From NCBI GenBank assembly GCA_905178155.1, contig CAJINV010000009.1, positions 682,001-746,000 on the forward strand: DNA of 64,000 nucleotides, given 5' to 3'. The stretch's first letter is position 1. Every line of letters begins with the position of its first letter. The notes beneath the pieces are model-generated. The model was not told the origin of the DNA, searched no databases, and saw nothing but the letters and a program-made list of their open reading frames with translations. Shown one piece after another: positions 1,126 to 53,923 of this stretch. Made by a program: the position numbers and the translations under genes. This stretch comes from Amoebophrya sp. A120 (taxonomy: Eukaryota > Protista > Dinoflagellata).

Positions 1126-1503
1126 ATGACCAGCAACATTGCAGGACAAGATTTCTCGACGCTCCCACCGGTTCAAGCTGCCCTCGGCTCCCTTCCGGAA
1201 AATGCTACGAAGACCGCACTTATGGCGTTGCTTGGACCCGTTACAGCACTGCAACCTGCGTCGACGGCGATTGGCCTCCTTAAGCAGGCTGCGCTTGAAA
1301 ACCCTGAACAAGGAACCAGTCCTGGCGCAACCCTGTACGGACTCTTGTCTATCATAAAGACAAGCTTAGCTGGATTTGCAGTGGAAGCAGTCTTGAAGCA
1401 GAAAATTGTAAACCATGTCGGCGATGTCGTGTTCGCGGAAATTGCGCAAACAAGCGAAGCGCCGGCGGCGGTCGAAGAAGCCAAGACACAAACTATTCTC
1501 TGA
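1126..1503 (+). CDS. small hypothetical protein (~125 aa)
   Basis: ATG at 1126 after an A-run (gaaaaATG), within ORF 1069..1503. Protein-like helical composition; no recognisable motif. Confidence 0.55.
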   Translation: MTSNIAGQDFSTLPPVQAALGSLPENATKTALMALLGPVTALQPASTAIGLLKQAALENPEQGTSPGATLYGLLSIIKTSLAGFAVEAVLKQKIVNHVGDVVFAEIAQTSEAPAAVEEAKTQTIL

Positions 1504-1690
1504 AAATTAAGCATCCCCATCAATTTGTACTTGTGCTGCAAAATAAGAAACTCATATGCGCGGTAACAGAATAGAAGGAAAAATTACCGGGTAACTTTTA
1601 CTAGTTATTTTGTATAGCCGCTCGAAAGCAAATTCTAATTGATTCTGTGTCTTTGTCTCTGTCTGTCATGTAAAAAATAAAGAGGCATGG

Positions 1691-7966: not shown

Positions 7967-10446
7967 ATGCCGGACAAGATCTCCCGCGACGAACAGCCGG
8001 CAATCCCGGCCGCCGCGGCGTCGAATCGCTTGAAGTACCACAACTTTTCCGCGGGCCCGAGTCGTTTGTTTGATGAGGTGATGGAAAAGGCGCACGAGAG
8101 CTTCTACCACTTCGACAAGACGCTGGACCGCTTCGGCCCGAACTTCATGGAGTTTTCGCACCGCGAGCCCTTCGGCGAGGTGCAGCAGGTCATGCTGGAG
8201 TACCAGAAACTGGTCAAGGAACTATTGAACGTCCCCGACAACTACCACATTCTGATGATGCCGGGCGGCGCGCACCAGCAGTTTTCCGCGGTGATGGTCA
8301 ACTTGTGCAAGAACAAGCCGAACGAGTCCCCGCCGCACTACGTCGACTCCGGGAACTGGTCGCGGAAGGCCGCCGCGATCGCGGAAGCCTACTGCAAAAC
8401 CGCTTACCCGGAGTGGTACGGACGGAGCGGAACTTCCAGTAAAATCTCTTGTTCCACCACGTCGAAGAAGAATGGTTCCAAAAGCAGTTGCAGTAGCAGC
8501 AGCAATCTCAATCTGCCGCGCTCCTCCTCCGCGACGTCTTTCTGCTCCACAACCACCGGCGGTTTCACCATGAGCCCATCCGACGAAGACTTCGCGACTT
8601 CGTCTTCCAAAGGGGACATGATGAAAGCCGAATCCTCCGGGATGAACATGAACAATCTCGCGACCAACAACAGTTCCTTCGAGGCCTCTCCGCCCTCCTC
8701 CACCCTGTTTCGCTCTTCTTCCATCGCCACCAGCACGGGGTCCCACAACGAGCCCTCGCCGATGCTGCCGAGTCGGGTTTTTTCGGAAACCAGTTCGGAC
8801 GCGGAGGAAGAGTTCTCGCCTGTTGTCCAGATGGTCGTCTTGGAGGAGGACAAGAACGTGGAGTCTTCAAAAATGCAGCCGAAAAATAACTTGATGAAGG
8901 CCAGTAGCAAAAGTAGTGTGATCTCCGACTTTTCCGAGCAGGTCCACGGCCCGCTGTTCTGCAACAAGGACCGCGGCTGCGTCAACAAAGTCACGGATTG
9001 GCAGGTCCGGGAGGACGCCGCGTACGTGTTTTGCTGTCTGAACGAGACCATCGAGGGGCTGGAGGTGTTCGAGGAACCGGATCTCGCGTTGATCGACCGC
9101 GCGCACATCCCGCTCGTCGCGGACGCGACCTCCACCCTCTTTTCGCGCCCCATCGACGTGTCCAAGTACGGCGTGCTCTTCGCCTCCGCGGGCAAGAACC
9201 TGGGCCCCACGGGGGTGTGCTTGGTGCTGGTACGTGATGATTTGCTGTCGGACAACTGCAAGATCGTCAACGGGGTTTTGGACTTCGGCGACGCGGTGAA
9301 GGAACAAGCCGGTTGTAGTTCTGGTGCGCAGAACGTTTCGGTTTCGGAGGAAAAAATCCTGGAGTTCACCTCGCTACCGATGATGGACTGGGGCAAGTAC
9401 GCGTTTTCGAAGCCTGTTCCGAACTATCAAGAGGAAAAATCCCCCCTCCCCATATCGAAACGAAGTTTCTGATGCTGGATTTCCGTACACAAATCAGATT
9501 TGTCTTGCAGTAGGGGGCTGCAGGCATATGTCAAGCCTCGGTCGAGAGGTTTTGACGTAGGCGCCTAGCATGACAAACGTGTATGCTCTAAGCCCAACAG
9601 CATCACAAACCGCCTGCAAAATGCAGGGGGCTCTCTGGACTTGCCTTCTTGCAAGACAGACAAGATTTGAGGTCACAAATGTGCGTCACAAATTTTCAGA
9701 CGGATGCGTTTTCAATATGGGGAGGGGGGATTTTTCTTTACGATACGAACATCTACAACACACCAGCGACGTACCCGCTGTACCTGGGCTACCTGACGTT
9801 GAAGACCACGCTGGAGAAGGGCGGTATGGTCGCGATGGAGGAGAAGGCGAAGCAAATTTCCGACAAGATTTACAACTTTCTGGACGACGAGTTCGAGTCG
9901 CACGGGTTCTACAAAGTCGTAGTCGACAAGAAGTTCGCCCACGATCGCAGCCGCATGAACATCTGCTTCAAAATCAATGAGTAAGCGAGGGAAAGGAAAG
10001 TTTGCTTGAAGAAAGACAATGAATTTGGCATTCAGATCCTTGGTGGTGCTGCATTGTTTCCGAGCAGTCTCGCACTGGCGCTCTTGGTCTTGCGTTGATA
10101 AACATTTTTGCACTTCATCAAGATGAGCAAAATCGCACCTCCACATCAAGTGTTGTATGTGCATCGTTCACATTGTTCGAAGTAACCAGGCAGCATCTAC
10201 TCAAATTCTAAGAGAAACTTTGGCTTTTTTTTTCCTCAGCACAACAGCACTGCTTTCCCGGCTGCGCGCGAGTTGGAAAAGGAGTTTCTCGAGTTCGCCG
10301 CGAACAAGTACAACGTGCATCAGCTCGCGGGACACCCGGCGGCTGGCGGCTTGCGCTTCACCACCTACAACGCGATCCCGGAGGCGAGTGTCGACGTCGC
10401 TTTGGGTGCACTGACCGAGTTTCGCAAGCTCCATGCCGCAGCTTAA
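7967..10446 (+). CDS. PSAT1: phosphoserine aminotransferase; exons 7967-9424, 9751-9980, 10248-10446 (~628 aa)
   Basis: Motifs NFSAGPS, FMEFSHR, GGAHQQF, NETIEG, DATS, SAGKNLGPTG (PLP lysine), YNTP, RSRMNI and GHPAAGGLRFTTYNA. Frame is restored by removing the introner 9425-9745 plus one TSD and the GT-AG intron 9981-10247. Confidence 0.93.
9425..9745. mobile_element. introner/MITE, family A (321 bp), TSD CGAAC
   Basis: TIR TATCAAGAGGAAAAATCCCCCCTCCCCATAT pairs with ATATGGGGAGGGGGGATTTTTCTTTACGATA. CGAAC at 9420-9424 and 9746-9750. Excision gives SKPVPN|IYNTP. Confidence 0.93.
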
Positions 10447-13157: not shown

Positions 13158-16100
13158 ATGACGCCGTCCACGACAATGTCGCAGCGGACGAGAAGCAGGG
13201 TCGTTGCGCTAGCTGCGCTCTCAAGTGCTCTCCGCTTGGTTGCCGGGCAGGGACTTCCGGACTGGTTTCCGAGTCATCTGAAGGACGACTACATGGAATT
13301 GCTTTCTTCCGACGTGCTTGCAGAAGACTCCTGCGCGAAGCGGCTAGCGATGTACAAGGAGCTGTCACAAGTTGGTAAGTGAGAAAAAGACGTTTTTCGT
13401 TGAAATACGTTTACATTCATACGATGATTTTCTTCTACTTCTCAGTTTGGCTCATCAGCACCTCTTGTTAGCACCAGCAGAACATACAAGTGTAGAAGTA
13501 TGGTGCATGTTGGACCGCTTGTGCTTGACGTCCAGATCACCTTTTTGTCACTCGAATTAGTGTGCTTGGTGCTATGTCTCCTGCTCCTGAAATAACAGCG
13601 GAACCTCAAGTGGCGCAGATACGGTACTCCATTCTCGAGGACCTCGGGTTCTGCTCTCTGCGAGAGGAGGATTACCGCAAAGCCAGTGCCAACTTCCAAT
13701 CCGCGCTCTCTGAGGTGGAGACCTTTACCCGGGTTAGCGAAGTTAGCTTGATGAAAATGCCGTCGTTGCAACACTTCGCACCCCTGATATTCGAGCGCGA
13801 CGCCGCGACGTCCCTAAATTTGAAAAAATGGGGTGACGCCGCTATGATGTTGCGACGGGTGAACCTGGTCAAAGGTAAGTATTGAATTGTGTGACGCTTC
13901 GAGTTCTAGTAGCCTTCAAACCTATGGTCTATTGTGTAGGCAGAAGTGCAGAATTTCCGTGTGAGAACGCGTGTAACTACTGCTGTCAGATGCAGCTTTA
14001 TGAGATGTTGATGATTAGGGAGAAACAAGAATATGCGTCGACGAAATTTTCATATGCAGATCGCAACTTCGACAAGGAGATGAAGATGATTGCGCAGCAG
14101 CAAGGCATTGCCTCTAAAGAGGACATCAAAAAGGACTGGGACCGCGTGAAGCCGCGCGTGCTGCAGCAAATGAGCCAGCAGCCCGGCGCGACTGGGAACG
14201 TGGTTAAGTCGCACGTTGCGCGCGGAGAGCTGCTTGCCAACATCATCAACCGCATCGACGCCGCGTCGGGCGTAAACTCCTACCGAAAGAAAGCCATTTC
14301 CGACGCGAAGTTCGTTCCAGGGTTGCTGTCCCCCGATTTCACCTTTACAGCAGAGGACTCTTCACACTTCCTATTGGATGACCTGAAGGGTCTCAAGTGG
14401 CCATCGAAGGGCCTGGAGGGAAAGCAGACAAGCTTGGTACTTATGTATGGATACGTTCATTTTGATTTTTCCATGTTGATGCTCGAACTTAGTGTATGTT
14501 GATGCGCTAGTAGCAAGAACGCGAAGTAGCAAGTTGCTGCTGCATGATGACGCGATCTACTTGTTCATCAAGAGAAATAAGATACGAGGAAGATGGTTAC
14601 TTTCCCCCTTTCCGTTACTTCCAGGTTTCCCCCCGCACCGGAAAGGCCGGGGAGTGCGACGAGAAGGTGTGGCCGGAATTTTGTGAACTGCTCAAGAAGG
14701 CGAAGTACAGCTCCGACGTTTTTAGTAGCGTTTTCGGCGGCGTGAAGGTTCTCGGCGGCAAGGCGGGAAAAGAGCAGAACCACAAGCTGGAAGTGTGCGA
14801 GTCAAACGCGGTTTTGGGGTTGGTACTCTCCGAGAAGGACTTCAAGCTGCACTTTGAAGCGGATTCCGGCCGCGACGCGAAGACCGAGACGGTAGCGAAA
14901 GACACCCCGACGTTCGTGAACTTTTGTCGCCCGATTCGCGTGGAGCGCAGTTCGCCCGTGCTGTTCGCGCAGCTCTGGCACCCCGAGGTGGCACCGATCG
15001 AGCGGTCCACCATGATCCGCGCGACTGTCTCGGAGAAGGAAAAGCAGAACGATTTGGCGAAGTTGGTCAACAAGCAAAGCGACTACTGGGAGAAAACGAA
15101 GCGACAGTGGCAAACCAAGCACGCGAACCAGCATAGTATAGAAAACATCGACAGCCAGAAGAAGCAGAAGCTGCAGAAGGAGGCCGAAAAAAAGGCCGAA
15201 GAGACGGAGGAAATGAACGATATGGATGCGTCAGGATCGAAATCGTCAAAGTTGAAATAGTTCGCGATGCATAAAATGCAACGCAAAAATTGCCTCTATT
15301 GCAGAGGACGCAAGGGATGCAGATTGATTGTAAGCCTGTGCAGGGGTAGAAATTAAGCTGCTAAAGGAGCATGAGAAAAGGCGTCTTCCTTACCCAAACA
15401 GCATGAAAAACTGGATTTCAGTCCTACCCAGATTTGTCATGCGCCACTTAAAAACTAGGCGCCAACTGGTATCCGTTCCATGCATCACAAACCATTTCAA
15501 CTTAGACGATTTCAATCCTGACACTCCCATAAACGAGGAGGAGCGAAAGCGGGCCGTGAAGAAGCTCGAGGCCGAACGGGCGGAGAAGCTGAAGATCGAG
15601 CAGCAGAAGGCGGAGGAGCGAAAACAGAAGGCAGAGAAGATGGCGGCCAAGAAGAAGCAGGAGGAGCCCTGGAGAAATGTAAAGATCATGATGAAACCCA
15701 GGGGCGATACAGATTCTGACGCGAAGAAAGTCGAGACTACGGTAGAAGAATGTTGTTGCGCACGTTTCTGTAGAAGTTCAAGCTGTACTAGTACACAATA
15801 CCTCAGTGAAAGAAACACGATAGTGCTGGTTTTGTTCTATGCCTTCGTTTTCTATTTCTGGATCCTCTCCTCGTTGCGAAAGCGAACGTCACCAGACAAT
15901 GCGATAATTCCTCCCGATTTCACTTTCCAGAAACACTTGATAGACTTAGACCAAAACTAAAATTACAATACGCCATGAAAATAATTAACAAAATTATCAG
16001 CTGCAAGAAGAGATGAATGCCCTTGAATCGCTGAAGGAAGAGAAACGCGACCTCGACCGACAGCTCGAATTCGGCCACGCTTCCGAGCTGGTGAAGGACA

Positions 16101-24000: not shown

Positions 24001-26191
24001 GCGAGAAATTATCCAGCGAAAGTATCCTGAGTAAAAACGTACCCACACCATAGTCAAGATGGGGAATCGGCTAGACAAATCCACAAGTTTTGGCTGTTTT
24101 GCATGACAGATTTGGACTCGTATTGTAGTGCTGTTTGAGCTAGCTCAGGAGCATCACAGAACTAGCATACCATGCTGATTGGAGCATGACAAATTGCAAA
24201 ACATGACTATAAAATGCTTCTCATGGGGCTCCGCATGACAAACATTTTCAGCATGCAGATTTGCATTACAGCTATGGGGTGGGTACGTTTTTACTCAGGA
24301 TAGAAAGCAGCAGCTCATCAGCAAAGCGGAGGAGGAGCTCAGGGCGATCGAACTGCTGTACGAACACCTCCTGCACCGACAGCCATCAAAACCGCCTTCT
24401 AGTCAAGCAGCCGGAGAAGTAGCCTCCAAGCCTGTGTCAACCAACAAGGGCAGCGAAGCAAGCACTGCTTTTGCACTGAAACACGAAACGCGAAATATTA
24501 AAAGCGACTACACTACAGACACCGCAGCTAGTACTTCGCCACTTATCGAGGAGAAGCACCGCGCGGTCTCGCCTCTGCTGGCTGCGATAGTGGACAGAAT
24601 GGTAAAAACAAGGGATGAGCAGGGAGGAAGTTCAGCATCGTCTTCGAAGGTCGGTAACGGAAGCCGAGAAAAAACCGGAAACCTCGCGCACGACTTCGCA
24701 TTTCATTTACTGCAGAAGCGCGCAGAAAAAATCGCATCGCTCTCACCGCGCGGGCGAGTGTCGGGCTCCTCGGATGGGACGAAAACGAAAAACAAAAAGC
24801 CGAATCCAGCTGCCGAGCAGCAAGCTTCCTTCGCGGAGTGGCAGCGGTCGTGGTTAGAAAAGCGCGAGGAAAAGTTGCAGTTTCTGAAAGAACTACAGCA
24901 TGACGAGACAATTCACAAGCACGCGGGCCACGGATTCTACGTCACGCCACAGTCGGAACGGATTTTGGCGGAAAAGGAAGATCGGATAAGAACCACGGTA
25001 GCCGAACCAGCCACAGAGCAGGATATGAACGCTGAGCCTCTTGAAGGGTACAAGTCTCCCGTGAAGGATCACGCTCATGTGAGTGCAAAGTACTGGGCGA
25101 AGCGGCAGCACGACGTGCACAGCGCGAAAAAAGTCGTGGGGCGGCTGAAGACTTTGAGGAATAACCGGAAAAACAATCAGAACAACCTCGGATCTACAGC
25201 AGGCCGGGTTTTGAACCTAACAGAGAAGGAAATCCGGGATGAGGAGAAGCACCCAAAATACAAAGCCAAAGACGGAGGCCCCATCAACGAAGCGCTTCTG
25301 CGGCTCGCGCAACCGCGGAAGGTGGAGCCCGGGCTGCAGGAACTGGAAAAACACAGCGAAGTGGAGCTCCGCGCGCGCACCGCCGCGCGCAAGCTGCTCG
25401 AGAAGAAGACGAACGTGAGTGATCGCGTCTCCGAACTCTACCAGCTTGGCGTGCAGCGGGTTTCGTCGAGTTCGTCTGGACCCGATGGTCCACCGGGGAA
25501 TAAAACTGCACCAACAAAGAGCGCGCAGCCGGCCCCTTCGACGTCGTCTTCCAAGATGAACTTGAATTCGATGAAAATTCTGCAAGCGGTGGCAGCGAGA
25601 AAGAAGCAAGCCCAGGAAGAGCTATTGCTTCAGCAATCAGTGCTTGAAGCAGAAGTTGCGTCAAAGAACCGCGTTCCGGAAATTCGAAACAAAACTGGAG
25701 TGGAGTCGAGTGCAGCGAGTACCACGGCCGACAGAAATCCGCCGAGCAGCCGAGAAGTTCCCGGACCAAAAGATGAAGGCGAAGCATCACCATCAACGGT
25801 TTTTGAAAAAACTGCAGAAAAGATGAAGGGTGAGAGTGGACCTTCAGCTGCACCACATCAGCAGCGTGGTTCAGAACAAAAAGTAAAGAAGCTGCAAGAC
25901 GTTCCTGCCGGCGCAGTGGCGGTTGTGGTTGATGCGTCCGACGCTGAGGGGAAGCCAAAGTCTGACGCGTCTGAAACTGCAAGTAGCAGATCGTCGAAAG
26001 GTCGCAAGAAACTACCGACGCCGCGGAGCATTCAAGCGATGGCGCGGATGCACCAAGTCGCAGAGGAGTGGAAGCGTCGGCGTGAGGAGAAGCATTTGCA
26101 GGCCAAGTTGCAGCGGGAGGAGGAACTACTGAAGGAATGCACCTTTGCACCAACTTTGCACTCCAAGAACTCCTGGAAACGCGCCACCTGA
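21092..26191 (+). CDS. large low-complexity/coiled-coil protein (~1600 aa); exons 21092-24022 and 24308-26191
   Basis: ORFs 21092..24034 and 24434..26191 are in the same frame and join (IIQRK|QQLISKAEEELR) when introner 24023-24302 plus one TSD is removed. C-terminal ELLKECTFAP motif. Confidence 0.75.
24023..24302. mobile_element. introner/MITE (280 bp), TSD GAAAG
   Basis: 31-bp TIR with one mismatch (TATCCTGAGTAAAAACGTACCCAC[A/C]CCATAG). GAAAG at 24018-24022 and 24303-24307. Confidence 0.95.
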
Positions 26192-27217: not shown

Positions 27218-30200
27218 ATGTGGCCGTTTCGCAGGGGAAACAAGGAGGACGGTGGGGGGAAGAAGGCGTGGAAGGCCATATGGATTGCAAAAGTGTCTGG
27301 GTCTGGAAGATTGCAACTTGTCGTGCTAAATCCGAATCATGCAAAAATCTGTGTTGCATGATTACCAAAAGAGGTCCACTTTTGAACAAGTTTAAAGGCA
27401 GTTTCTCATGCAGAATAGGCATAAAAGAGACCTCACAGCCTCTGTCATGCTAGGTCCCGCATTCCAAACCTCAAGGGTCATGGAAAACCTGCATGACTGC
27501 CCCCTTCATCCTAAGTGCCATCAGCCATGGTATCTGGAAAACCTGCATGACAAGTTCACATTCTTCCAGACCCAGACATTTTTACATTTGATAGGCCAAG
27601 CTGGACGACAATCCAATGACCATGTACTACAACAAGGAGTTGAAATGCTGGGTCGAAAAGGGCAAGGAGGAGGAAATGCGAAAGAAACTGGAGCAGACCG
27701 CCGCCCCGCCGCCGACGGCTGCACAGCTAAGGGTGCCACCAGGCGGCGGTCCGCCGGGCGCGGGCAGCTCAAGAGTAGACGATGCAAGAGACGACGATGA
27801 CGATATCCTGGGAAAAATGCTCCGCGCCCCAACCCGGTCTCTGCCCGGCCGCGCCGGCGCGAGTCAGGCGAGCCGCCGAACGACACAGGGAGGCATTGGA
27901 GGCGGCCTCATCCCGGGGATCCCGGGCGCGAATCACATCAGCATGCCGAGCCTGATTCCCACGCCCGGGTCCCTATCCGCGGGAGGATCGCAGCCGGTAT
28001 TTGATAGTCTTTTGCTCATGTACATGCTTGTTTTTTTTCCCCATTTCTCCGCTTCTCAGCTTGCTGGTACCAAGCAAGATCGCGTTGATGCAAATGAATA
28101 GCAAGAATTAACCAAACTCCACACACAGGATCTGCACGCGGGCAACGATATACTTCCCGCAGCAACCGGCGGTCCTTCAATACCAACGCCCGTGCCTGTC
28201 CAGCCCTCGGTGTCGGACCCGACCCAAACGGCAGGAGCAGCCCGGCCCGCCGTTGGGGGTGGGCGCAGCTGGCAGGACGACGAGGACGAGGATGAAGACC
28301 TGCTAGGCTTGAAAGTCACGAAGAAAAAGGACACGCCGCGCCTAGTCGTCACGCCGCCGGTCACGCACGCAGAACCACGTGCACAAGAGCAAGGGCTCGC
28401 TCCGCCGCTAGAAACGACTTCTGCAGCTGCAACTTCACAATCACACGAAGTAAATCAGTACAAGCCTGCAGCTTTGCCGCCCACGGTGTCCCCCAGTCCA
28501 TCGGAGCAAGAAATGCAGACCAACAATGCGGACCCATTCGGCTCCTTTGGCGGGCAAAGTCCCAGCGGTGGAAAGACCGCGGGAGAACAAACTCCTCCTG
28601 GATACGAGGCCTACACCGCTGGTGCAGCAGCTTCTTCGTTCGCAGATTCATCGCAACAAGAACAGGGTCACGTGTTACCCGCAGCGGGGCACTTTCCACC
28701 ACAGCCTGTGATGAATGACCTGTTCGATCCACCGGCGCCAACCGTAGGTGTCACGACATCATACGACGGCAACATACCACAAACTGCTGAACAAGTTCCA
28801 ACTTCCCAGTTCCGGCCTCCACCGCGTGACCACCGCGACGATCTGCAATCAGCACCTGACGCATTGCAGGATCCACCAGCACAGCGATCTTCTTATGAGG
28901 AAGGCTATGAAAACCTGCAGGAGCATTCAGAACAGGTTGCGGGGCGGGCGGAACAGCTGGAGCCGATAACATTTGGACCACCTCCTGCGCAGTCAACTAC
29001 GGAAGGTGAAGAGGAGGACGGGGATCCTCTTGAGCACGACCAGACTGCTGCAGCCCCCGTACAAGGAGAGCAAATTATACAAGACGACCCACACGACTCT
29101 GACTCAGCACGACCAAGCGAGGCGGCGTTTTCCGCGAGACGAGTTCCGCCCCCCGACGGCTATGCCTCCTCCAGCACCTCCGGGGCAGCAAAGTCAAAAT
29201 CTCGATCACCAGCAGAGATGAAGCCCTCGGACATCGAGCTAACGCAGGACGGCGAGAATTTTTTGGCTGATGTCGGCGATGACGAGATCGATAAGTACAC
29301 CGTGGACGAGAACCACGAAGTGCGATTACGCGCCGCAACGGAGCCCACGGGGGCAGCTTCTGGATCGCACGGAGAACAAACGTCAGCACAGCAAGCGATG
29401 CAGCAACCGATTTCGATCTCGGTCACAGGCCTTGAGCACCAAATCATACATCCCTCGTCCAGTGGTAGCTCCTCGTCCTCTGCTCTGTTAAACAACAACG
29501 ACCAGCACAACAACATCGTTCCAAACAGGGGAGGACAGAATGTCCTCGACTTCACCGATCTGGACATCACAGCGTCCAATTACGGCTCGAAAAAGTCCAC
29601 CAGTTCCAAGCTGAACCAGTTGGAAGCGATTCCTGACGACGAACTGGAGGAAAGGGTGAAGTCCCTTCTCGCGGAGGACCGGAGTCGTGACGGCACTATG
29701 TTGTGCAAAAGTATCGTACTCGTACTAATTGCAAATGCGCATGACAAATCTGCCTTCTAAGGTAAAACAGCATTACAAATCCCATTTTTCTTCTTGCCAA
29801 AATTTGTAATGCAATTTATACTAGTACGATACTTTTGCAATGCATAGGCACCGATCACAAACAAAATCTGTACCAGAAGCAAAACGCACTCCACACCTAC
29901 AGCAGTTCGGTGTACTACAAACCCGGAGGAGGTGGTGGAGCTACTGGTGGGTTGAACAGCGCCACCCTCGCGTCCGGCGTGATTAATATAAATAACGTCC
30001 CGGGCTCGCTCACGTTGAACCAGGACCACCTCAGCGACTTGCTCCGCGCGCCGCCAAACACCACCGATCTGGCTTCGATCAACTACAATTCCAAGAATTT
30101 ACTCTCCTCAGCTTCCGGAGCGGGAAATGCGACTTCATCCTCAGCCGTGCTCGAGGCGGGAAGAGATGGCGCCGTCGAAGGAGGCATCGTCTCGAGCAAT

Positions 30201-33661: not shown

Positions 33662-35545
33662 ATGATCCCAACGCGGTCAGGAAGCCCGAAAACTAATATG
33701 AATTCGCTGAACCCGGCAACAATGAACAGCCAGCACCACCTTCTACTTACGGAGCAGGACCAGCAAGGTGTTGTTGACGATGCAAATCTGCACAACAACA
33801 TGCAGCAGCAAATCCCGCACCAGCTCCTCGCCCAAAACCAAAATCGGGACCACGGCGCCAGCGCGAGTCGACCTCCGGGCCCGCGGTCGGAGGTAACTTT
33901 TTCATCCGTGTCCTCAGACGATAGCTTACCGCTCGGGTGCGAGCACAACGAGTACTTCTGGATCAAGAGGTACCGAGCCTTGAAGCGACGCGTCTCCGCC
34001 AACAAAGTGCGGCAGACCGGAGAAAATCTGCAGGAAGCCCCCATTTTGGAGGAAGAGGAGGAAGGAGTACTTGCACTAGTTTTCTAACTTTGTTCTATGA
34101 AGATTAGTCGTAGTTCTTTTGCGCTGCTAGTGCTACAGAACAATAGTTTGATTTTGTCGAGCTCGCTGCCAAGGCTTACCTGCGCGTCTTGTTCCTCTTC
34201 GACGGACCGTAAATCAAAATGATTCGCAGCAGGAATCGTACACGTATCGTGAATTGTGAATACCAATATACCCGTACTACCATACTAGGCCGGCAGCCCG
34301 CTAGGCGGCGGCGTCGCAGCGGCACCGGACCAACTGACAAACAATTTGCTCCCGAACCGCTTGAAGCGACTGCCTTGTACCCGCTTCTACATGGAGGAAT
34401 CGAGGCAGGATCCCTTTACCGACTTCGTGCACTCGGAATTCCTCGCAGCAGTTGTCTCGTCGGCGGCAGATCTTCATCAGAGTGCAGCGCAGCAGACAAG
34501 TCCACCGAGCATGAATCTCCTGGGGTGTGGGATGGCCAACAAAAGCCGCATGGCGCTGCTGCGCACCCAGGACTCGTTGCTCATTTCCGCGGTAAGTTCC
34601 CGCTGGTTCGTCGTGGACGTGTTTAGTGGAATCGTGCCCACCGGCGCCGCTGTAACCCTGCAGCAACAGCTATGACAGTGCACAACTGCAGCTCCACATC
34701 CCCCTCTCATTCAAAACACACACGAACTTGCCGCTTGCTGTTTGGCAGTGTAGCCACTGCCGCAGGGTTTGCAAGGCAAGTCCCTGGATCTACTTGCCAA
34801 ACCGCGCTACCGTTCATCGTTCACGGAGTTGTATTCTTACGGAAAGCTCAGTCAGATGTCTTCCGTTGCAGTTGATTGTGTCGCTGTTAATCATGCGCGT
34901 CGAATGAGAGGGATGGGCGAAGAAATATTTGTGCACTCGGCCCATAACACCAGAGCGGCGGCGCGGGCAAAAAGAAGCTGCTCGTCGGCGTTACCCGGTC
35001 CCCGCAGCAGCAGCCCTGCGACCTGTTGGACACAAAGCTGGTCACGCTCGGTGAGGAGCTGTTCACATCACACTCCGCGGGCGTTGGGAGCAGCTCCAGC
35101 TCGACCTCGCGGGTCAAATTGCTCGTCACGCCCGCGCTCGAATCGCCACAGACCAGCAAGTACGTGCCGGGGGACATCACTGTCTTCGTGAACGACCAAA
35201 AAGTGGCGGAGAAAATTGAACACGTATCAACTGTAAAAATGTCTGGGTCTGGAAGAGTTCATGTTTGTCATGCTTGTCTGGCATGACTCTTAAATCTGTC
35301 ATGCACGTTACCCAAGATCTGCGCTTTTCTGTGATGCAGAAGCGCAGTCTGTCATGCAGAATAGGCAACACCTAGGAGCTCAGAAACTTGTCATGCTGAG
35401 CCAGCATTTGTAGCCTCATCATGAGGATGAGAGGCTACCCAGCATCACAAGTTCCCAGACCCAGACATTTTTACACTTGATAACACGGATTCAGTTGCGA
35501 TCAGGAGCTTTTCGGGCTGGCGGTGGTATCCAGGTCGAACAGTAT
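33662..35545 (+). CDS. multi-exon hypothetical protein, possibly with a SPRY/neuralized-like beta domain; 3' end unresolved
   Basis: Gln-rich first ORF, probable GT-AG intron 34592-34765, and segments KKLLVGVTRSP and GDITVFVNDQKVAEKIEH|GFSCDQELFGLAVVS joined across introner 35225-35482. Exon model is incomplete. Confidence 0.45.
35225..35482. mobile_element. introner/MITE, family B (258 bp), TSD ACACG
   Basis: TIR TATCAACTGTAAAAATGTCTGGGTCTGG pairs with CCAGACCCAGACATTTTTACACTTGATA. ACACG at 35220-35224 and 35483-35487. Confidence 0.93.
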
Positions 35546-37617: not shown

Positions 37618-37876
37618 CTATTCCGAAATTAATCGCAGAAGAATTGTGAGCCCTCTATTAACATGTTCTACTGCAATTTCTTTTTTCTTCTTCAGAAAAG
37701 CAGTTTTTCGCGTGTCAAATCGACCAGCACAAAGACAAATATAAACTGTATTCGACAGGAATAAATGTGAAGAACATGACGCGTAAGGGATGTCTCAAAC
37801 ATCTCAGTACAGTCCACAGCCAGTACCATCAAGTATACAAACAGACTCATGAAAGGTCAGAAAAAATAGTAGTGGA

Positions 37877-40800
37877 ATGATGACAGTGTGCAAAACGGGA
37901 GGCGCCATGTTGACGCTGCGTGGCCGAGTAGGTGCACACCGAGGCTTGCCAGTATTTTCAGCGGTGCCCTCCCCTTTTGGTCGTACGCCCCGTGTGTTGC
38001 GGAGGTCCACTGCGAGTACGTTTGCCGGCGTGGTAGAGCTTTTGATTCTCTGCGCAGCACTTGCGTTCTTCCTGGTCCTTCCCCCCGGGAGTGGCACTGT
38101 CAATGTCATTTTACTGCAGAAACTGGTGCTGCAGCTGCCGATGTCGGCGCTATTAGCTTGTCCTGTGGATGCAGTGCGAGCACCAGATGAAGTGCAGCAA
38201 GTTGACGCCGTGAAGATGAAGAACGAAGATGAGGAGGAGCTGTTGAAAGCAAAGAGTGCAGCTGTTACATCCGACCATACGGCCATCGGCACTAGCGGAA
38301 TCAGTTTCATCGAGAAAGAAGAAAAGCAACAAGAGAGGCAGCAAACCACTCGAGTTTCGAAAAGACGAAACAGGCACAAACGCCGTCGTCGGATACGAAA
38401 AAAAATAGCGAAGCAAGGCGAGGAGAAAATAGAAGCCAAGAAAGAGAAACTGGCGCTGAGACTCGTGCATGAGAAACAGCATGAGGGGCGAAGGGAAGGA
38501 AGAACAGGAAGAACAACCACCGGGGTTCTTGTACAGCGCAACAAGCTCGCACTGCGACAACGTGAGCGGCTGCGAAGGTTGAAGCTGCATGTTTTGGAGC
38601 AGAGGAGGGAGAGCGCGAGGACACTGGCGACGATCCAACGAAGGACACAGAAAGAGGCACAAAGGCGACTGCGGAAGCAAGCAATCCTGTTGAAGAACAA
38701 GCAAAAAAGAAAAAACATGAAGAAAGAGGAGCACCAGCACCAGCGCGAACAAGAAAAGGAAAATCACAAAAAGGCGCAACTGAAGAAAGCGAGAAAAGAA
38801 AGCACTGCGCGGATAGCAGCACAGGAGCAGAAGATGAAAAAAACAGGACGAGAAAATGTGTTGCAGGAACAGGAACGCGAATTCCAGCAGGAAGAGAAAG
38901 AACAAGTAGGACTGCCGGATGTTAGTGATTTTCTTAAACTGGGCGAAATGCCGCAATTCCCCGACATCCACCAAATGAACGACCAGGCGACGCTTGATCC
39001 TCATGAGTGGTTCAAACACGTAGACGACCCCGACAACGAACTTAAGACTGGCGAGTTTTTCAGTTGGCAAGATGACGGTGCCCATTGGGAATGGTTTCCA
39101 TATCCCCATCAGGTGCATGACTATGAAGATTTCACCCCGACGTTTGACACAGACCACATTACCTCTGATGACGACCACTACTCCATCGAAAACTTCAAAA
39201 AGAAACTTCACGGCAAAGAGATGGATTTTGGCGAGTTCATCAAGTTTATGACCCACGGGCAGTGTGACGTCGCTGGGGTGGGTATGCAAGAAAAATCAAT
39301 CTGTGCTAGTGCTGTTGTAGAAAGAAGAAGTACCTGGCATGTAAGTACCAAGCCTAGTAAATATTTTTTTTACATGCTTCTACTCTTTCTGCTGATGCAT
39401 TTTTGGAGTGTCATCCATGATTGAAGAAGACGCACCCCTCCGCACGTCGACGTCGCTCCCTAGTGTAGGATAAATGATGACGATGATCATAATACTTACT
39501 TATGTAGTGAGGTAAAGTGGGTTTTCATGTCGTCCTTCTGTCTGAGCATGACTGACGTCGTCGTGTCAGACATACTCACAATGCGTTTTCTTCACCGAAA
39601 AACAATACACTCGCACATGTTTTTTTCTTGGATAGTAGAGTACGACCCTCCTGGCTGTGACGACGCGGAATTCACGTACGACAACCCAAACTCGGCCTAT
39701 GGGGCTATTGGTGCGGGGTGTATGGGTGTCACGGAGGACCACAATCCCCCCATTGGCGAGGCTTGTCCGACACAGCTCACCGATCCTCAGCGCGACGAGT
39801 ATGCGGAAGACGGTACGTACGCTGGCGCGCACATGAGCCTGCTTGAGTCGCTGGGAATCGATCGCGTCGTCGACGATAAAAACCTCGGAGACGAGAAGGA
39901 GGGAAAGTGCAACATGGAAGATCTGAAGAATCTGTTCGAGAAGATGACGAGCGACGACGAAGCGCTGGTAAATATCCAGGATCAGGAAAGCGAAGCAGAC
40001 CATCAGGTCGAAGTTCGCGAAGACGCCCTCAAGCACGGAAATGCCCACTTGTCGCTGGGCGACGTGACGGCAGCACAGATCATGCACAATGCGGACGTGA
40101 ACGGCAATCCCACAAAGGATGGCCAATACCACGTCGACCAATTCGAGATGCAGGATTACATGTTGAACCTATCCAGGAAAAAACACCCGTCCCCATCCAA
40201 TTTGTCATGCAGAACATGCATAAACATAAACTCCCGCGCTTGTCATGCAAGAAATGGATGGGGATGGGTGTTTCTTCCTGGATAGAACCACGCGTCCAAG
40301 GATGAGTGCGAGGCTGTTGGCGGAAGCGACTACTGGCTTGTATGGGAGTGCCAGAATCGAAATTGACAAAGTTGAAATAAGGGTGCCTCTATTGCAGAGG
40401 AGGCAAGGGAGGCAGATTATAGTCCTGGCACGGGGAGGATGCTGATGCAAGAGGATGCAAGGAAGGCCCTTTGCCCTAAACAGCCCGACAGATTCGCTTC
40501 CGGTGCGGGAGAAATTTATGATCTGTGTGTCCAACTACTGGCAGCGATTTTTTATGCTTTACACATTTTTCAACTTTGTGGATTTCGATCCTGAAACTGC
40601 CATAGCAGGTCGTGAACAAATACAGGCAATCGTCGGAGTACACGGAATACATGGAGGAATACAACGAAAACCTGAACACCGCTTACAAGTCTGCAAGAGA
40701 ACCACAGTGGACAGGTGGACTGAAAGTGCCTTTTGTCGATTACAGTTGGTTAGCCACGGACGAGTCGCTACAACCCGGTCAGCAGGTGGGAATGCTTAAC

Positions 40801-43800
40801 CAAGGACACTTCAGCACGACCGGCACCGATGACCAAAATCCCATGCCTGACTACCACGACATCCTGATGGACTCACTCGGGGATGATGCGGAGCATCCCG
40901 TCCACGCGGAGGACGTTGGCATCGACTTCAAATCGAAGCCAGGTGACGGTACGGATCAGGTCGACCCGTACCAGATGACCAAAGATCTCTTCGAGCAGTC
41001 AAATCAAAACGGCGGAACGGAGATGCACGGCTGGGAGCTAGCCACGCAAACTCGAGCCCACGACGACTACGAGGAGTTGACAGATGAGTTGACAGGGGTG
41101 AACGCGGCAGACACAGAAGATAAATTCAAAGCATTTTTCAACGACCACGACTCGTCGCATCACATGGCGCTGTACCGGACGCTCGGGGGACAAGGGCAAC
41201 CAAGCGAGCACAACGTCGACGTTCTGTGGGACAAGTTGCAAGCAAAGGCGACTAGTAGTGAAAGTGTGGAAGATGTCGTTGGTCATTACATGTCCCCTCT
41301 CCTCAATCATGACAATGTGGATGACCTCCTCCATGTGGAAGGCGACGATCCGGAGGAAAGCCATGGCGTGCTTTCGCCTACCGTACCGCCGGGTGACGCG
41401 GTGCATGAAAGCATAGAACCTGCGCAAGCGGCGCCGACAGACGGGATTGCAGGCACCGGGATCTCGACGTGGACTGCCGGGGAATTGCTGGCTGTTGGTG
41501 CGACTGTTGGGGGTACTTTCTACTTAAAAAGCCAAGCAAAACGGAAAGCCAAGGCAGCGGCCTTGGAACAAAAAGCCTACGATGCCGAGATGAAGAAACT
41601 GCATACCGTGGCTGTACAGGAAGAGGAGGAACGCGTGAAAGCCGCTGCGGAGCAGGAGGCCGCCAGGTATGCGGCGTCCCCCGAGGGAATTGCTGCGCGG
41701 CTATCGAAAGGAGAAACCCCCCCTCCCCATAGCGGAAACGAAATTTGTGATGCTGTATTTGAGGTCACAAATCGACTTGTCATGCTAGAAGGCCAAGAGC
41801 CGCAGCAGTGGCCTCTTTTGCAGGCAATTTGTCATGCTGTTTCCCACTCTCAGCTGCCTCCTATCATGCTGAAGATGCAAGGCTTCCCCACGCCACCCAG
41901 CACTACAGTCCGCGTCTTTTCCCGTGTAGCATGACAAAGCTGATTTGTGACAACAAATCTGCATCACAGATTTCCGCTTTGATATGGGGAGGGGGGATTT
42001 TTCCTTTTGATAGCGGCAGAAGGCGGAGGACGAGGAGAGGTTATCCAGGAAAAAACACCCATCCCCATCCAATTTGTCATGCAAGACATGCATAAAAAAA
42101 GTCCACTCCACTATTTGTCATGCAAAACATGGATGGGGATGGGTGTTTTTTCCTGGATAGAGGTGGCGAAAAGCGCACGAGGCAATGCAGGAGAAATTCA
42201 AACCGCAGGCACGCGATGCGGCCTTGGAGGACCTCCGGAATCACAATTCCCCGGGCGCTTTTCTTCCTGCAGCGGAACAAGAAGATCGGCGCGCTGCCGC
42301 GCCTCTTTCAGTTGCAGATGAGTGGGGAACCGACGACGACGACGAGCGGCTTGCGAACAAGAAGAAACGGGAGCTGGACAAGCAGTTGATGGCGAAGCGA
42401 AAAGAGAAGGAAAAACGCGAGGGCGGGCGTGGTCGCTCAACGAGGGCAGACAAGATAGAGAAGCGTCGGCGTCACCGGAACAAGAATCGTAAACGTAGCG
42501 AATACGAAGAAGGCGACTACGCGGCCGCCAGCGCTGCATCTAGTACCTCGTCTTCGCTGCAAGTGGCAGAAGTGCCCAAGGACAAGGACGCGAAACATGT
42601 TATTGGTTCTGCAGCGGTATTGAGCCAGCGGGGGGTGGAGACTGACGATGAAGAAAATCGAGCCTCTGCTCCTATAGTTCCCGAAGAAGAAGGAGATTAT
42701 TTGAAAACGACCTACAACACGGGCGGAAGGACTGAGGCAGTCGAAGACCTCAAGACGAAGCGCAGCGGCCACTTCAGTCATAATCTAGCGCTTGATGACC
42801 ACGGGAGCGAAGCTGCAGACGCGAAACAACAAAATGCTGGCGCAACGAAGCAGCCACCGAATTTATCACCTGTTCCTCTGACCGATAAAGCGGAACACGA
42901 ACAAATGATAAGGGCTCCCAACTACATCTTCGAAGACAAAAATTCGCTGGTGGACGAAGGCGACGAGTTACGAGAAACAGCAGACGAAGTTGACGGTGGA
43001 GAGGAGAGCAGCGACGACCAGGGCGATGAGGGCGACGAGCAGGAGTTTTCCTCGGAAGACGACGACGACTTTCCTAAGAACACCAACGGTCAAGAAATAG
43101 ACCCATCATCTGAAGAGGAAGAGCTGCAGGAAGCCGAAGTTGCAGAAGTAGACGACGTGTTTGATGTCGAAAACGAAAAAAGAACGCCAACAGCAAAAAC
43201 CGGTGAAAACAACAAGAGTGCTGCTGCTGCTGCTGCACTGCTTTTCTCGACGTCCGCCTCGCAAAAGCTGGAGTTTTTGGATGATGTCAAAGTACCACCA
43301 CCAGCTTCCGAGGGCGGAAAAAGCGGTGGCTTTCGTCTCACAAGTCGCGCGCCAGGGACGGACAAATCCGGCTCAGAAGTGCACGCGCTTCCAGCCGATG
43401 AAGATGAAAGTGAAAATACTGACACGACGGTCATCAAAAGTAGGATGGGCAAATCAATGACGAACAGTGTAGGAGCTGAGGCAGGAGGAGCTGCTCGTAG
43501 TTCATCCTCAAGAGCAGAAACTAATGCAGCGGCATCTACTTATCGGTCCTCCACGGCAACAAGTCGCCCGGCTGGGGCGTCACTGCGTGGATCGAGTCGG
43601 GCCATGAAAATGCGCGACGTGGTCCTCGCGTCTTCAAATGTCGTGCAAGCACCAAACGCAAACGACGCTGCGCTCGGGGAATCCAGTTCCGAAGGAGAGG
43701 ATGAGGCTGAGGAGGACGAGCAAGATGAACAGTATGAAAGACTTGCTGGTGCCGGCAGATCGTCCCATACCCGTAGCTTCCAAAACGATGGAGACCGGCC

Positions 43801-45841
43801 GAGGCACTACGAAAGGTTTGGCATCGCGTTAGAACAAGATGAACCCGCGATTGTTGATAGCACCAGCTTCCACCTGCCCGCAAGATCCAGCACAGGAAAA
43901 ATTGCTACCTTCTTCGTCTTGCTCGTGCTCTTAGGAGGTCTTCTTGCAGTGTACTTTACGGACTTCGACCTTCGCGGAAGTGGGGCGCGATTGGTTATGC
44001 GGCTACAGGCGTTGCGGCTGCGCACCCTCGCACAGCCAGCCTTGGAGGGGGACAACAACAACATCACCGCGGACGAGTATCTTCCGGTAGCAGAATCCGG
44101 AGCTTCTCCCCAGTGCGCACAAGACGGGCGACTTGTAGTAGCTGGGGCGCTCCTCGACCAAGACGGTCGGGGACAACTACCTGCGTCCCGGAAAGTTCGA
44201 TTTGCGAGGTTTATCGCCAAGGGAATCAGCTTTGTCCGCGAATCCGTTTGTTCTTTCGCAGCTGGCGGCGTAGCCAGCGCGGGCGAGGAGGAGGAGGGGG
44301 CGATAGTTGGGTTATTAGCTGCGGCCCCTGGTGGTCGTGCAGATACAACCACTTCTACTGGGGCAGCCACAGATGGCATCATCGACGGAGAGAACTCCAT
44401 GCCGCGTTTGGAGGTCGGCGTTCCGCAGAATCATGTCAACGGAGCTGCTGATGTCCCCCCGGAGACTGTTGGTGCTGCTATAGGAGGTGCTGCACCCGGA
44501 ACCATAAACAGAAGCGGTGCAGCAGTGCCAGCGCATTTGCTGTCCGCAGTTTCCACTTCTAACCACCGCCCTACTGGCCGCCGTTTTGTCGCTGGGGCGA
44601 TCCCACGACTGAATCGCCCCCGAGCACCGGGGCGTGCCGCGAACGCCGAGCCCATCAATATCCGCCCGGCCGCAACATCAACATCTAGTACGAACTACGG
44701 CGGTGGCACGGGAGGAACTTTCGGCGACGATATTGTACTACCTGCCGGCGGCGCTGCGCACGCACACGCTAGAGGCGGTGTTCGGTTCTACCCCCGGGCG
44801 GCGCGTGGGAGAATTGCGTACAGGAACAATCAGCATGCGCTTCACGACCGCGTGAATCCCAACCGAAATACTCGAGCAGTGCCAGCTGGTTCCCCGATAG
44901 CAGGAACGCAGGAGCCAGCACAGCAAAACAGCGCGACCTCGTCTCACAATCATGGACGACAGCACAATGATCCTCCACTACAACAAGCGAATGAGTCGCG
45001 ACAGCTACGGGGACGGGTGGTAGGAAGCTACGTCAACCCTTCTGCTGCTGCAGCTGCCGTGCAACAAGAGCAGAGTCGACGAGGTCGCTTCCGACCACAA
45101 CAAGCACCTCCGCGGCGGCCATTGGTTATCGCTGAAAGAGGAGTACACGGCCGGCAGCGGCTTGTGGCAAATAACAACCAGCGGCTGTATAATGCGACGA
45201 GAGGGGCGACGAGTAGGAGTAATCCAAGCGCCGATTTCCAGAACGAAGCGATGTGCACCTCCGCTGCAGCAGGTGACCACGAGGACGAGGAGGACGAAGT
45301 TGCAAGAAACATCGCCGTCGAAAATAACTTTGTCACAGAGGACGACGATGAAGATGCATACGATGAAGTTGAAGACGAGGAAAACTCTCTACTTCTCGGA
45401 GTCGGAGATGAGCGCGATTATTTGTATGGCTACGAGGCAGGAGAGCTGGAGGATTATCAGTACGCAGATGAGGAGGACCTTGTGTTCGATGCGGGGCGTG
45501 ACGACGAGTTGCAGTTGGACTTGCAAGATGATCAAGTAAACCAGCATTGGAACGTCGGTATAATTGGAGGCGCCGGGCGGCAAAACCACGCACCAGACAC
45601 AGCGGGCTACGAAAATGGACGCGGACACGCGGCAGGGGGTCGTCGTGATGAAGAAGCTGATGGAGATGACCAAGAGGTGGAAGACGAATTTCTAGAAGAG
45701 GGCCCCGACCCCGAGCAGCAACATCAAGCAGAGGGTGCAACCGGCGTGCTACAGCGAGATGAACAAGATCATGAACGGAGCTCGGGACGACTCGATCGGC
45801 GCGCAGCCAAGAACGTCGATCGGCAAAACCGCTCTTCCTGA
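37877..45841 (+). CDS. very large acidic membrane protein (~2260 aa); exons 37877-39281, 39639-40169, 40290-40339, 40609-41701, 42018-42041, 42165-45841
   Basis: Four long ORFs and two micro-exons join in one frame (6780 nt total) after removing five introners. Hydrophobic segments near the N-terminus, at ~41480-41525 and at ~43900-43960. Start codon uncertain. Confidence 0.7.
39283..39634. mobile_element. decayed introner (352 bp), now a GT-AG intron 39282-39638
   Basis: TATGCAAGAAAAATCAATCTGTGCTAGTG vs reverse complement TATCCAAGAAAAAAACATGTGCGAGTG. Imperfect TSD GTGGG/GTAGA. Confidence 0.75.
40170..40284. mobile_element. introner/MITE, family C (115 bp), TSD GAACC
   Basis: 30-bp TIR TATCCAGGAAAAAACACCCGTCCCCATCCA with 2 mismatches. 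GAACC at 40165-40169 and 40285-40289. Excision gives YMLNH|ASKDEC. Confidence 0.94.
40341..40604. mobile_element. introner, family D (264 bp), now a GT-AG intron 40340-40608
   Basis: TATGGGAGTGCCAGAATCGAAATTGACAAAGTTGAAA vs reverse complement TATGGCAGTTTCAGGATCGAAATCCACAAAGTTGAAA. Shares internal TGCCTCTATTGCAGAGG with the 15221 copy. Imperfect TSD GCTTG/GCAGG. Confidence 0.88.
41702..42012. mobile_element. introner/MITE, family A (311 bp), TSD GCGGC
   Basis: TIR TATCGAAAGGAGAAACCCCCCCTCCCCATA pairs with TATGGGGAGGGGGGATTTTTCCTTTTGATA, with imperfect pairing extending ~85 bp. GCGGC at 41697-41701 and 42013-42017. Confidence 0.93.
42042..42159. mobile_element. introner/MITE, family C (118 bp), TSD GAGGT
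   Basis: Perfect 30-bp TIR TATCCAGGAAAAAACACCCATCCCCATCCA. GAGGT at 42037-42041 and 42160-42164. Excision gives EDEER|WRKAHEAMQEK. Confidence 0.96.
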
Positions 45842-52027: not shown

Positions 52028-53923
52028 ATGGACGTTCTCGAGGAGTGTACCCAGGAGCTGCGGGATATGGCCGAGGAGCGGGACTGGAACCAGTTTCACA
52101 CGCCGCGGAATATCCTCCTGGCCCTGGTCGGCGAGGTGGGCGAACTGGCGGAGCTGTTTCAGTGGCGGACGGACTTCACCTGCCAACGAAACCTCCCGGA
52201 GTGGAGCGACAAAGACCGTCAGAAGGTGCGGGACGAGGTGGCGGACGTGTTTGCGTACGTGGTCCGCTTTGCGGACTTGTGCGGCATTAACCTGTTGGCT
52301 GCGTTTCGAGAAAAGATGGTCAAGAACCGGGCGAAGTATCCGGTCGAGTTGTGCTATCCACAGTAAATTTCCCGTACACGTACACATGCGGTCTCTGCAT
52401 GAGAAAACTTGGCTTCGATCCTAGTTTAATAGCATGGCAAGTTTTACGCTTCAAATTGGTGAAATTTGTGATGCATGTTGTACATGTACGGGAAATTTTT
52501 TGTATTGCATATGTGCTACGGTAAAAGCACCAAGTACAACGAACTGGAGGCTGCCGAGCGACGGGTAGATAGATCACCGTCTGTTCTTGTCGAAAATCAA
52601 GCACTACAACCCCACACAGGAATAGGGCTTAAGCTTATAGTACCTCCGTCGAAAAATGATAATTATACGACGAGCCCTGCTGGCGTGCCAAACCCGCAAT
52701 CGAATGTGGCTGCTTCGTCCAGACAGCCCCCGAAACCCCCTACGGTGCAAAAACGGAAAAATAATCTGGAATCAAACAATTTCGGCGCACACCAGCTCGG
52801 CGGCGCCATGGCTATTCCAACAACATCAGGATCACCAGCAGCGAGTAGTGGCAAAATAAATGGGACGAATACCAACCCGAATAAAAGCATTACGTTCGAA
52901 GACATTTGCGCCACCAAATCCGCAAACAGGTCAAGCAACGTCAATGCGAATGGCACTTTCACCGGTGGCGGCAGTGCCACTGCGAGACCAGGTCATCAAA
53001 ACCCAAACACTTCTTTTCAGCCGCATCCCGGGGGAATTGTGGACCCCGGCTCCGCGACGACGGTGGCAGTGCGGTTCGGGGACGTAGCCGGTGCCGGGTA
53101 TTCTGCTTTTTCTGCCTCAAGTTCCTCGCCTCACACCGGAGGTCCTCCGCAGCACCTTGCTCCTCCCGGCGCCATGTTCAAGAATCAACGTGATCTGCAG
53201 ATGAAACCTTCCCCCCTTTCACGCGTGCCCGTCTTGCAACCACCGCCAAGCAACCGACTCGCAGGTAGAGGGCAGAATGCCGTGGGACGATCGTCCTCGT
53301 CCTCCTCATCCTCGGCGGGTGAGGCTTCTGGGGTGAACGGAACCGCCTCGCAAAAGGGCGCGGAGGAGTCATCTCGTCAATCCTCTTCTTCCCGGTCAGG
53401 AAACGAGGAATCAAGAGGGACAGGTGCTTGTTTGAAGAGCGGTGCAGCAGCAACGAGCACGGTTGGGCGTGCGGGCCGGGGTTCAGGGAGCTTCGGGCGG
53501 TTTGTGGAGCAGCGCCAGCAGAAGCAGCAGTTTCTGCCCGAGCCACCCCCACCCATGATAGTGCCTCCAGGACAAAGTGGAGCCACGGCACTTGAAACGC
53601 CCGTAATTGAACCGGTCAAAACGAATAACCCGTTTCTGGAGGATGTCACAGTTGAGGCATTTTCGAGCGACGAATTAGGTGTTGATCGGGGTCGGGGAGT
53701 GACGAAAAATTCCAGCACCTACAACATGGACAGGACGATCCACTGCGAGCAGGAGATTGAAGAAGGAACCACTGGTGCCAGTGGAGAAAAACGCCAGCGA
53801 ACGACAGTCACAAGACCGATTGCCCCAGCTAGTAGTGCTGTTGCCGCCCAGGATCTTCCCGGGTCTGTGTCGATGTATGGCGTGCCTGGGAGGGGGCCGT
53901 GCGGTCCGTCGTCGCAGGCCTAG
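52028..53923 (+). CDS. DCTPP1: dCTP pyrophosphatase 1 (MazG-like) with long low-complexity C-terminal extension; exons 52028-52354 and 52517-53923
   Basis: ERDWNQFHTPRNILLALVGEVGELAELFQW...DEVADV...KNRAKYPVELC|YGKSTKY. An upstream exon is possible. Confidence 0.88.
52355..52511. mobile_element. introner/MITE (157 bp), TSD TGTGC
   Basis: Imperfect TIR TATCCACAGTAAATTTCCCGTACACGTACA vs reverse complement TATGCAATACAAAAAATTTCCCGTACATGTACA. TGTGC at 52350-52354 and 52512-52516. Confidence 0.88.

Follow-up and report, generated by a model that had tools for sequence, protein, structure and literature searches.

Introners of Amoebophrya sp. A120 were described by Farhat et al. (2021; PMC7789003) as introns with inverted repeats (IRs) starting with TAT and with direct repeats (DRs) of 3–5 nt at their borders, and 15% of the canonical introns of A120 were reported to carry the same combination. 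No autonomous element was reported for A120 in that paper. Among 22 of the 58 A120 rows of PMC12130899 (supplement 8), most introners are given as DNA elements with terminal inverted repeats (TIRs), superfamily unknown. The border position was stated to be unknown (Fig. 3 legend of PMC7789003), because perfect repeats hide it. The geometry is partly implicit in print: the IRs lie 1–5 nt from the splice sites (Fig. S23 legend), and all nine top non-canonical splice sites of A120 have a T at +2 (Table S4), a pattern that aligner preference could have produced. The text and supplement passages of the paper, with its figures represented by their legends, contain no register derived from mismatched DRs, no test of mismatch direction and no selection on the +2 T; the figures themselves may show the register described below. 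In the openly readable literature (subscription papers, e.g. Roy et al. 2023 and Henriet et al. 2019, lie outside this scope), no report was found that fixes the A120 register by mismatched repeats or describes selection on the +2 T. The element class is already known, and the register and the protected +2 T are the new detail.

Three further systems are comparable. In Symbiodinium, Polarella (class 14, with an AGGH target site duplication, TSD) and Florenciella, the intron likewise consists of a TIR element and one TSD copy, and the +1 base and the acceptor come from the target (10.1101/2020.10.14.339549, PMC9860276). These introners require a target giving G(H) or AG, whereas the target is unconstrained here and no conversion trend was seen in a relative. 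Boundary conversion with age, from GA to GC or GT, is described for introners of the Symbiodinium/Polarella type (same sources). The nonconventional and 'intermediate' introns of euglenids also have paired ends, cuts at a set distance from the stem and occasional canonical borders (PMC4770533, PMC12501133). A stem-plus-spacer code was shown in Euglena (PMC12501133), and a conversion hypothesis exists for the intermediate introns (PMC4770533). The euglenid signal is CAG/CTG pairing at +4 to +6 with a purine starting the next exon, whereas here a transposon TIR forms the stem and the +2 T is the candidate signal. The non-canonical introns of Fritillaria borealis are likewise TIR- and TSD-bearing and transposon-derived, and a modified U2 spliceosome acts on them (PMC11282704, PMC13326754). 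Their borders are mainly AG-AC or AG-AT and U1 is present; in A120 the borders are NT-NN and U1 is undetected.

The window analysed here is a 64-kb stretch of DNA, and the proteins encoded in it are 100% identical to Amoebophrya sp. A120 entries. A census made blind to the TSD identified 14 introners, ten with a perfect and four with an imperfect TSD (Table 1). The initial annotation had counted only two elements with imperfect TSDs, and the elements at 1494 and 34671 have to be added. The window elements have IRs starting with TAT followed by an A-run, a 5-nt TSD over the borders and repeated families. They resemble the published A120 introners (PMC7789003) in organism, in the TAT and A-run, in the IR with a DR of 3–5 nt and in the NT-xx top splice sites.

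Table 1. Introners, focal introns and host reading frame in the window (positions in the window; 4|1, four bases of the left TSD exonic and one intronic).
Feature	Position	Strand	Remarks
GT-AG intron	39282..39638	+	last base of left TSD, introner 39283-39634, first 4 bases of right TSD
Left TSD GTGGG	39278..39282	+	4 bases exonic, 1 intronic
Right TSD GTAGA	39635..39639	+	4 bases intronic, 1 exonic
GT-AG intron	40340..40608	+	G, introner 40341-40604, GCAG
Left TSD GCTTG	40336..40340	+
Right TSD GCAGG	40605..40609	+
Introner 1494-1717, imperfect TSD CAAAC/AAAGT	intron 1493..1721	+	CT-AG at 4|1; register 4 alone reproduces P0003
Introner 34671-34946, imperfect TSD ACAGC/ACACC	intron 34670..34950	+	CT-AC at 4|1; registers 4 or 5 reproduce P0004; no joint among the listed RNA joints
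Introner, perfect TSD GAACC	40170..40284	+	RNA joint 40164>40285, skip 120, X3 and X4; CT-AC at 4|1
Introner, perfect TSD GGCCA	27279..27593	+	RNA joint, skip 320 (X3, X6); element+5 removed
Introner, perfect TSD GGCAC	29697..29846	+	RNA joint, skip 155 (X3, X6); element+5 removed
Introner, perfect TSD GCGGC	41702..42012	+	host gene; P0001 spans
Introner, perfect TSD GAGGT	42042..42159	+	host gene; P0001 spans
Introner, perfect TSD CGAAC	9425..9745	+
Introner, perfect TSD AACGA	15221..15531	+
Introner, perfect TSD GAAAG	24023..24302	+
Introner, perfect TSD ACACG	35225..35482	+
Introner, perfect TSD TGTGC	52355..52511	+	TIR has indel
Host reading frame	37853..45841	+	2,267 codons stop to stop, five introners removed at 4|1

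Several other features of the window were recorded. The introner at 52355 splits a MazG-like pyrophosphatase exon (PF12643, E 1e-9; 52112-52511). A repeat at 37114-37593 lacks TAT...ATA ends; parts of it are 75–84% like loci L009-L011 and L028 of the related assembly introduced below, and RNA contigs at a depth of about 500 pass over it, other letters lying in between. A lone TIR-like left end at 27804 (22/30) has no partner, lies within an RNA-covered exon and is probably due to chance. In the raw RNA reads of runs X9 and X10, only 2/30 and 4/30 bins were covered, all inside elements, and no exon junctions were seen. On 24000-43900 these reads fell on element interiors only (mainly the families of the elements at 24023 and 27279), with fixed differences, which suggests another strain sharing these element families. 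The TIR pattern had no match in viral contigs.

Both focal introns run from GT to AG, have the length of the element plus 5 nt (357 and 269 nt) and have TSD copies matching at three of five positions. The TSD pairs, the lengths and the in-frame peptides GVEYD and YWLVVNK had been claimed before, and a re-reading of the sequence and the frame agreed with all of them. Removal from the mRNA, also claimed earlier, was supported by RNA contig joints for five window elements. One contig of set X5 (depth 4.5) joins 39280 to 39638 (skip of 357 nt, GT..AG at cut +1, 1-base ambiguity), and one contig each in X3 and X4 joins 40339 to 40609 (skip of 269 nt, 2-base ambiguity). These are the predicted junctions 39281/39639 and 40339/40609, seen in a single sample (X3, X4 and X5 are one) at very low depth. 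The contig sets are presumed to be RNA, and ordinary GT-AG joints in X3 and X6 support this origin. X6 contigs bridge neither focal site. At this very low depth, no alternative joints were found among the RNA contigs at the focal introns, and the upstream AGs at 39634-39635 and 40604-40605, which had been named as possible competing junctions, were unused. The joints at both sites mean that the mRNAs carry GTGGA and GCTTG. Where the introns are spliced, they have the GT donor and the AG acceptor of canonical U2-type introns. Moreover, the database protein P0002 continues across intron 39282..39638.

The element at 40341 belongs to the same family as that at 15221, with nine copies also among the listed loci of the related assembly; the element at 39283 matched the library arms only weakly (21/30). 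A distance of 0.7 kb separates the two GT-AG copies, which share one gene. At 40341, the TSD mismatches allow pairing between the right TSD and the left flank, and the predicted stem then spans both splice sites (folded segment 40330-40618).

With the five introners out, the host frame is a single ORF with the terminal stop alone. P0001 and P0002 each match part of it. The database models divide the gene: P0002 is partial and ends inside exon 39641-40168, and P0001 begins near 41.6 kb. RNA contigs bridge three of the five introners of the gene. No Pfam families were found in the scanned pieces of the frame, and orthologue searches with the gene returned A120 itself only, with neither focal site covered.

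The register within the TSD had been proposed as 4|1, and all four mismatched TSDs intersect there, two by RNA and two by gene models. The joint 39280>39638 allows three or four bases of the left TSD to be kept, and the joint 40339>40609 allows four, five or six; hence, a shared register must be 4. The transcript-based models allow only register 4 at the CT-AG intron (P0003) and 4 or 5 at the CT-AC intron (P0004). The register is thus not confined to GT-AG introns. The A120 gene models rest on aligned transcripts, with no canonical-site predictor involved and EST2GENOME tried first (PMC7789003); at 1494, the P0003 model may have been drawn towards the AG. A second CAAAC was considered as the TSD of the element at 1494 and rejected, as element+5 at 4|1 alone reproduces P0003. 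The three RNA-joined elements with perfect TSDs (skips of 120, 155 and 320) hide the register; at joint 40164>40285, five bases are ambiguous, element+5 is removed and any register fits. A coding-constraint test of the register (codon score and stop codons) gave no signal in the related assembly (47/61 elements). The published AG shares per A120 family (24–34% in large families; PMC12130899) were rejected as evidence because, inside a perfect repeat, the annotated border can shift.

A larger sample came from a TIR pattern scan, which returned at least 161 stretches, equal to at least 150 loci; the matches listed were all from one other, related assembly. It has the same families, with up to 92.5% identity over 321 nt among the matches listed. 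We retained 141 listed loci (565 kb), in which element ends were set by TIR similarity with nearest-partner pairing and the TSD was left unused. They gave 413 unique elements, whose strand was assigned by a k-mer model trained on the element-masked window; a codon model concurred on 373 of them. Pairs with a TIR below 13/25 (eight of the 413) or with at least three TSD mismatches (16) were dropped as probable mis-pairings. One of the latter, L028 3093, reads GT-AG. After gapped and TAT-blind searches were added, the final set comprised 417 elements: 325 with a perfect TSD, 71 with one mismatch and 21 with two. The sample represents a relative and not A120, is centred on one family, is element-dense, has inferred strands and comes with no RNA of its own; fully TIR-decayed copies are invisible in it.

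The initial annotation had also claimed that the terminal T of the element supplies the donor +2, and the related assembly supports a constraint on this T at the transcript 5' end. Because the two element ends form a palindrome, transposition and detection place the same constraint on each, and splicing is able to distinguish them. The first T was changed at the transcript 5' end in 1 of 416 listed elements and at the mirror 3' end in 13 of 416 (p=0.002; 417 minus one misregistered element). Stricter strand cut-offs gave 1 vs 11 of 334 and, for the best-oriented listed elements, 1 vs 9 of 290 (p=0.02). No matching 5' protection was seen at TIR positions 2–3 (12 vs 5), and the mutation spectrum was without strand bias (A>G 121 vs T>C 117). 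One further TIR position of the 30, position 23, was asymmetric (7 vs 20). The single changed 5' first T (L004 1359-1507) is a C preceded by G, i.e. a GC donor. None of the TSD positions departs from flank composition, and 63 of the 64 NT-NN boundary classes are present in the listed loci. In the spliceosome, the +2 U contacts the U6 catalytic core.

Our main reading, with a probability of roughly two in three, is that the focal introns are published A120 introners spliced at 4|1, that they are GT-AG by chance, and that the cuts are set by the terminal hairpin together with a required +2 U. GT-AG would be incidental because the hairpin and one U, rather than GT-AG, probably determine where the cuts fall. 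A non-autonomous TIR element would insert in an exon without target preference, probably by transposition, leaving the 5-nt duplication that is seen. The TIRs are predicted to pair in the pre-mRNA. The cuts would then lie 1 nt ahead of the stem (5') and 4 nt beyond it (3'), as RNA indicates for two introns and gene models for two more, and presumably in the rest; with this spacing, the element takes just one of the two TSD copies along. The first T of the element, intron +2, would be the sole base under splicing selection, as suggested by the asymmetry in the related assembly, and the +1 and -2/-1 bases would be whatever the target gave. The stem would measure the cuts, and a U2-type spliceosome would likely perform the chemistry. 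As copies age, TSD copies and TIRs would drift; about 1 copy in 40 reads GT-AG, by insertion at an AGG site or by drift, and GT-AG copies would form one of 64 boundary classes.

The most probable alternative, which we nevertheless consider unlikely, is selective conversion: GT-AG splices better, so that in old copies intronic mutations to +1 G and -2/-1 AG become fixed, after which the TIR decays. The window alone favours it. Here, TSD mismatches went five times towards GT/AG and once away, and all four focal mismatches lie at TSD positions 3–5. Two of the four imperfect copies are GT-AG (p=0.003 at a base rate of 2.2%, post hoc), and finding at least two GT-AG copies among 14 has p=0.037 (post hoc). 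An AG acceptor occurs in three of the four imperfect copies, compared with none of the ten perfect ones in the window (p=0.011) and 5 of 91 in the listed loci of the relative (p=0.0016, post hoc). Boundary conversion is, moreover, known from Symbiodinium (10.1101/2020.10.14.339549).

The larger sample did not show this trend. According to the initial annotation, a genome-wide table of TSD mismatches by position and base should reveal the selection, and the related assembly showed the random pattern that the annotation had named as refuting it. In that assembly, mismatches were spread evenly over positions 1–5 (25, 21, 19, 26 and 21; p=0.81; 408 listed elements), and among the 92 imperfect copies of the listed loci, 20 changes went towards GT/AG and 26 away from it. 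Among the listed copies, GT-AG borders occurred in one of the 92 imperfect ones (upper 95% limit about 6%) and nine of the 325 perfect ones; counted free of strand, the shares were 3/81 and 11/308. Only 1 of the 21 listed two-mismatch copies was GT-AG, and none of ten extra eroded copies with one or two mismatches was. The sole imperfect GT-AG copy listed from the relative (L023 282-591) shares its family with the element at 40341, a point in favour of conversion. In several copies, AG or AGG is confined to the exonic side, which speaks against it: in the relative, L015 607, and in the window, the copy at 34671, which is one mismatch from AG, with the AG on the exonic TSD copy. A25 and one other P0004 homologue are gapped at this site. 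TIR identity drops with any TSD mismatch (rho 0.26, listed loci), as age would give. Two-mismatch TSDs were about twice as frequent as expected under a single rate (21 vs 10.4; listed loci L001-L150), consistent with mixed element ages, and adjacent double mismatches were not enriched (7 of 21 listed).

Two further supports of conversion changed on inspection. All four focal mismatches had been called intronic; the sequence cannot show which copy changed, because, whatever the register, one copy of each TSD position is exonic and the other intronic. A neutral path model of the focal pair gave 8–32% to insertion as GT-AG, 19–52% to two intronic changes and 40–49% to one change of each kind, and 68–92% to at least one intronic change. 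Thus, change after insertion is probable, and selection for that change is not thereby shown. The TIRs of the focal copies had been described as eroded. Their identity is indeed lowered, but the erosion is mild: at 17/25 and 19/25 (gapless), they stand at the 8th and 24th percentile of 308 perfect-TSD relatives in the listed loci, and by gapped scores at the 14th and 33rd. Both introns are still predicted to fold end to end with paired ends (z -3.7 and -6.0), and this strong stem argues against decay following conversion. Four RNA-confirmed ordinary GT-AG introns at 27.9–32 kb lack both a TIR and an ATA at -7 to -5 and hence cannot be recognised as former introners, and a PWM scan for very old elements gave 22 candidates vs 13 in a shuffle, none of them GT-AG. 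As the test was run in a relative, conversion in A120 is weakened and not excluded. The excess of GT-AG and AG in the window has no account except chance, and the focal GT-AG pair is likely chance, because about 400 related copies show no trend towards GT-AG.

Less probable again is removal by a structure-guided nuclease and ligase outside the spliceosome, with the +2 T kept for another reason. There is no requirement for GT or AG, the predicted terminal stems are stable, and U1 is undetected in these genomes (PMC7789003). Such removal would parallel the nonconventional introns of euglenids, for which the machinery is unknown. However, the protected base is exactly intron +2, its lone exception is GC, which is a spliceosomal donor variant, and A120 has 83 of 89 spliceosomal proteins as well as U2, U4, U5 and U6 (PMC7789003). 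Least probable is that both elements hit xYAGG sites and were GT-AG from the start, with later changes in the exonic TSD copies: perfect AGG TSDs do occur at the rate expected from composition (8/308 vs 9.6, listed loci), DRs with IRs border 15% of canonical introns in A120 (PMC7789003) and the adjacent mismatches at 40341 could be a single event, but the neutral model weights this full history at only 8–32% per element, and positions 1–2 are without mismatch, although both copies are free to vary there.

Amoebophrya excises non-canonical introns by the tens of thousands with no U1 detected. Mismatched TSDs reveal at little cost where the border truly lies, and comparing the 5' with the 3' copy of a palindromic end separates splicing selection from the constraints of transposition. 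Conversion, if true, would show transposon introns becoming ordinary ones; the idea failed in the larger sample. If the main reading is true in A120, the rule for these introns would be a precise one: N-U, stem, 4 nt. Tentatively, and at somewhat less than even odds, A120 may have a spliceosome with a one-letter code, in which the hairpin measures both cuts and only the +2 U is checked, replacing U1 and AG recognition. Any exon position and orientation would then tolerate insertion, and ageing A120 copies may also be drawn towards AG or GT.
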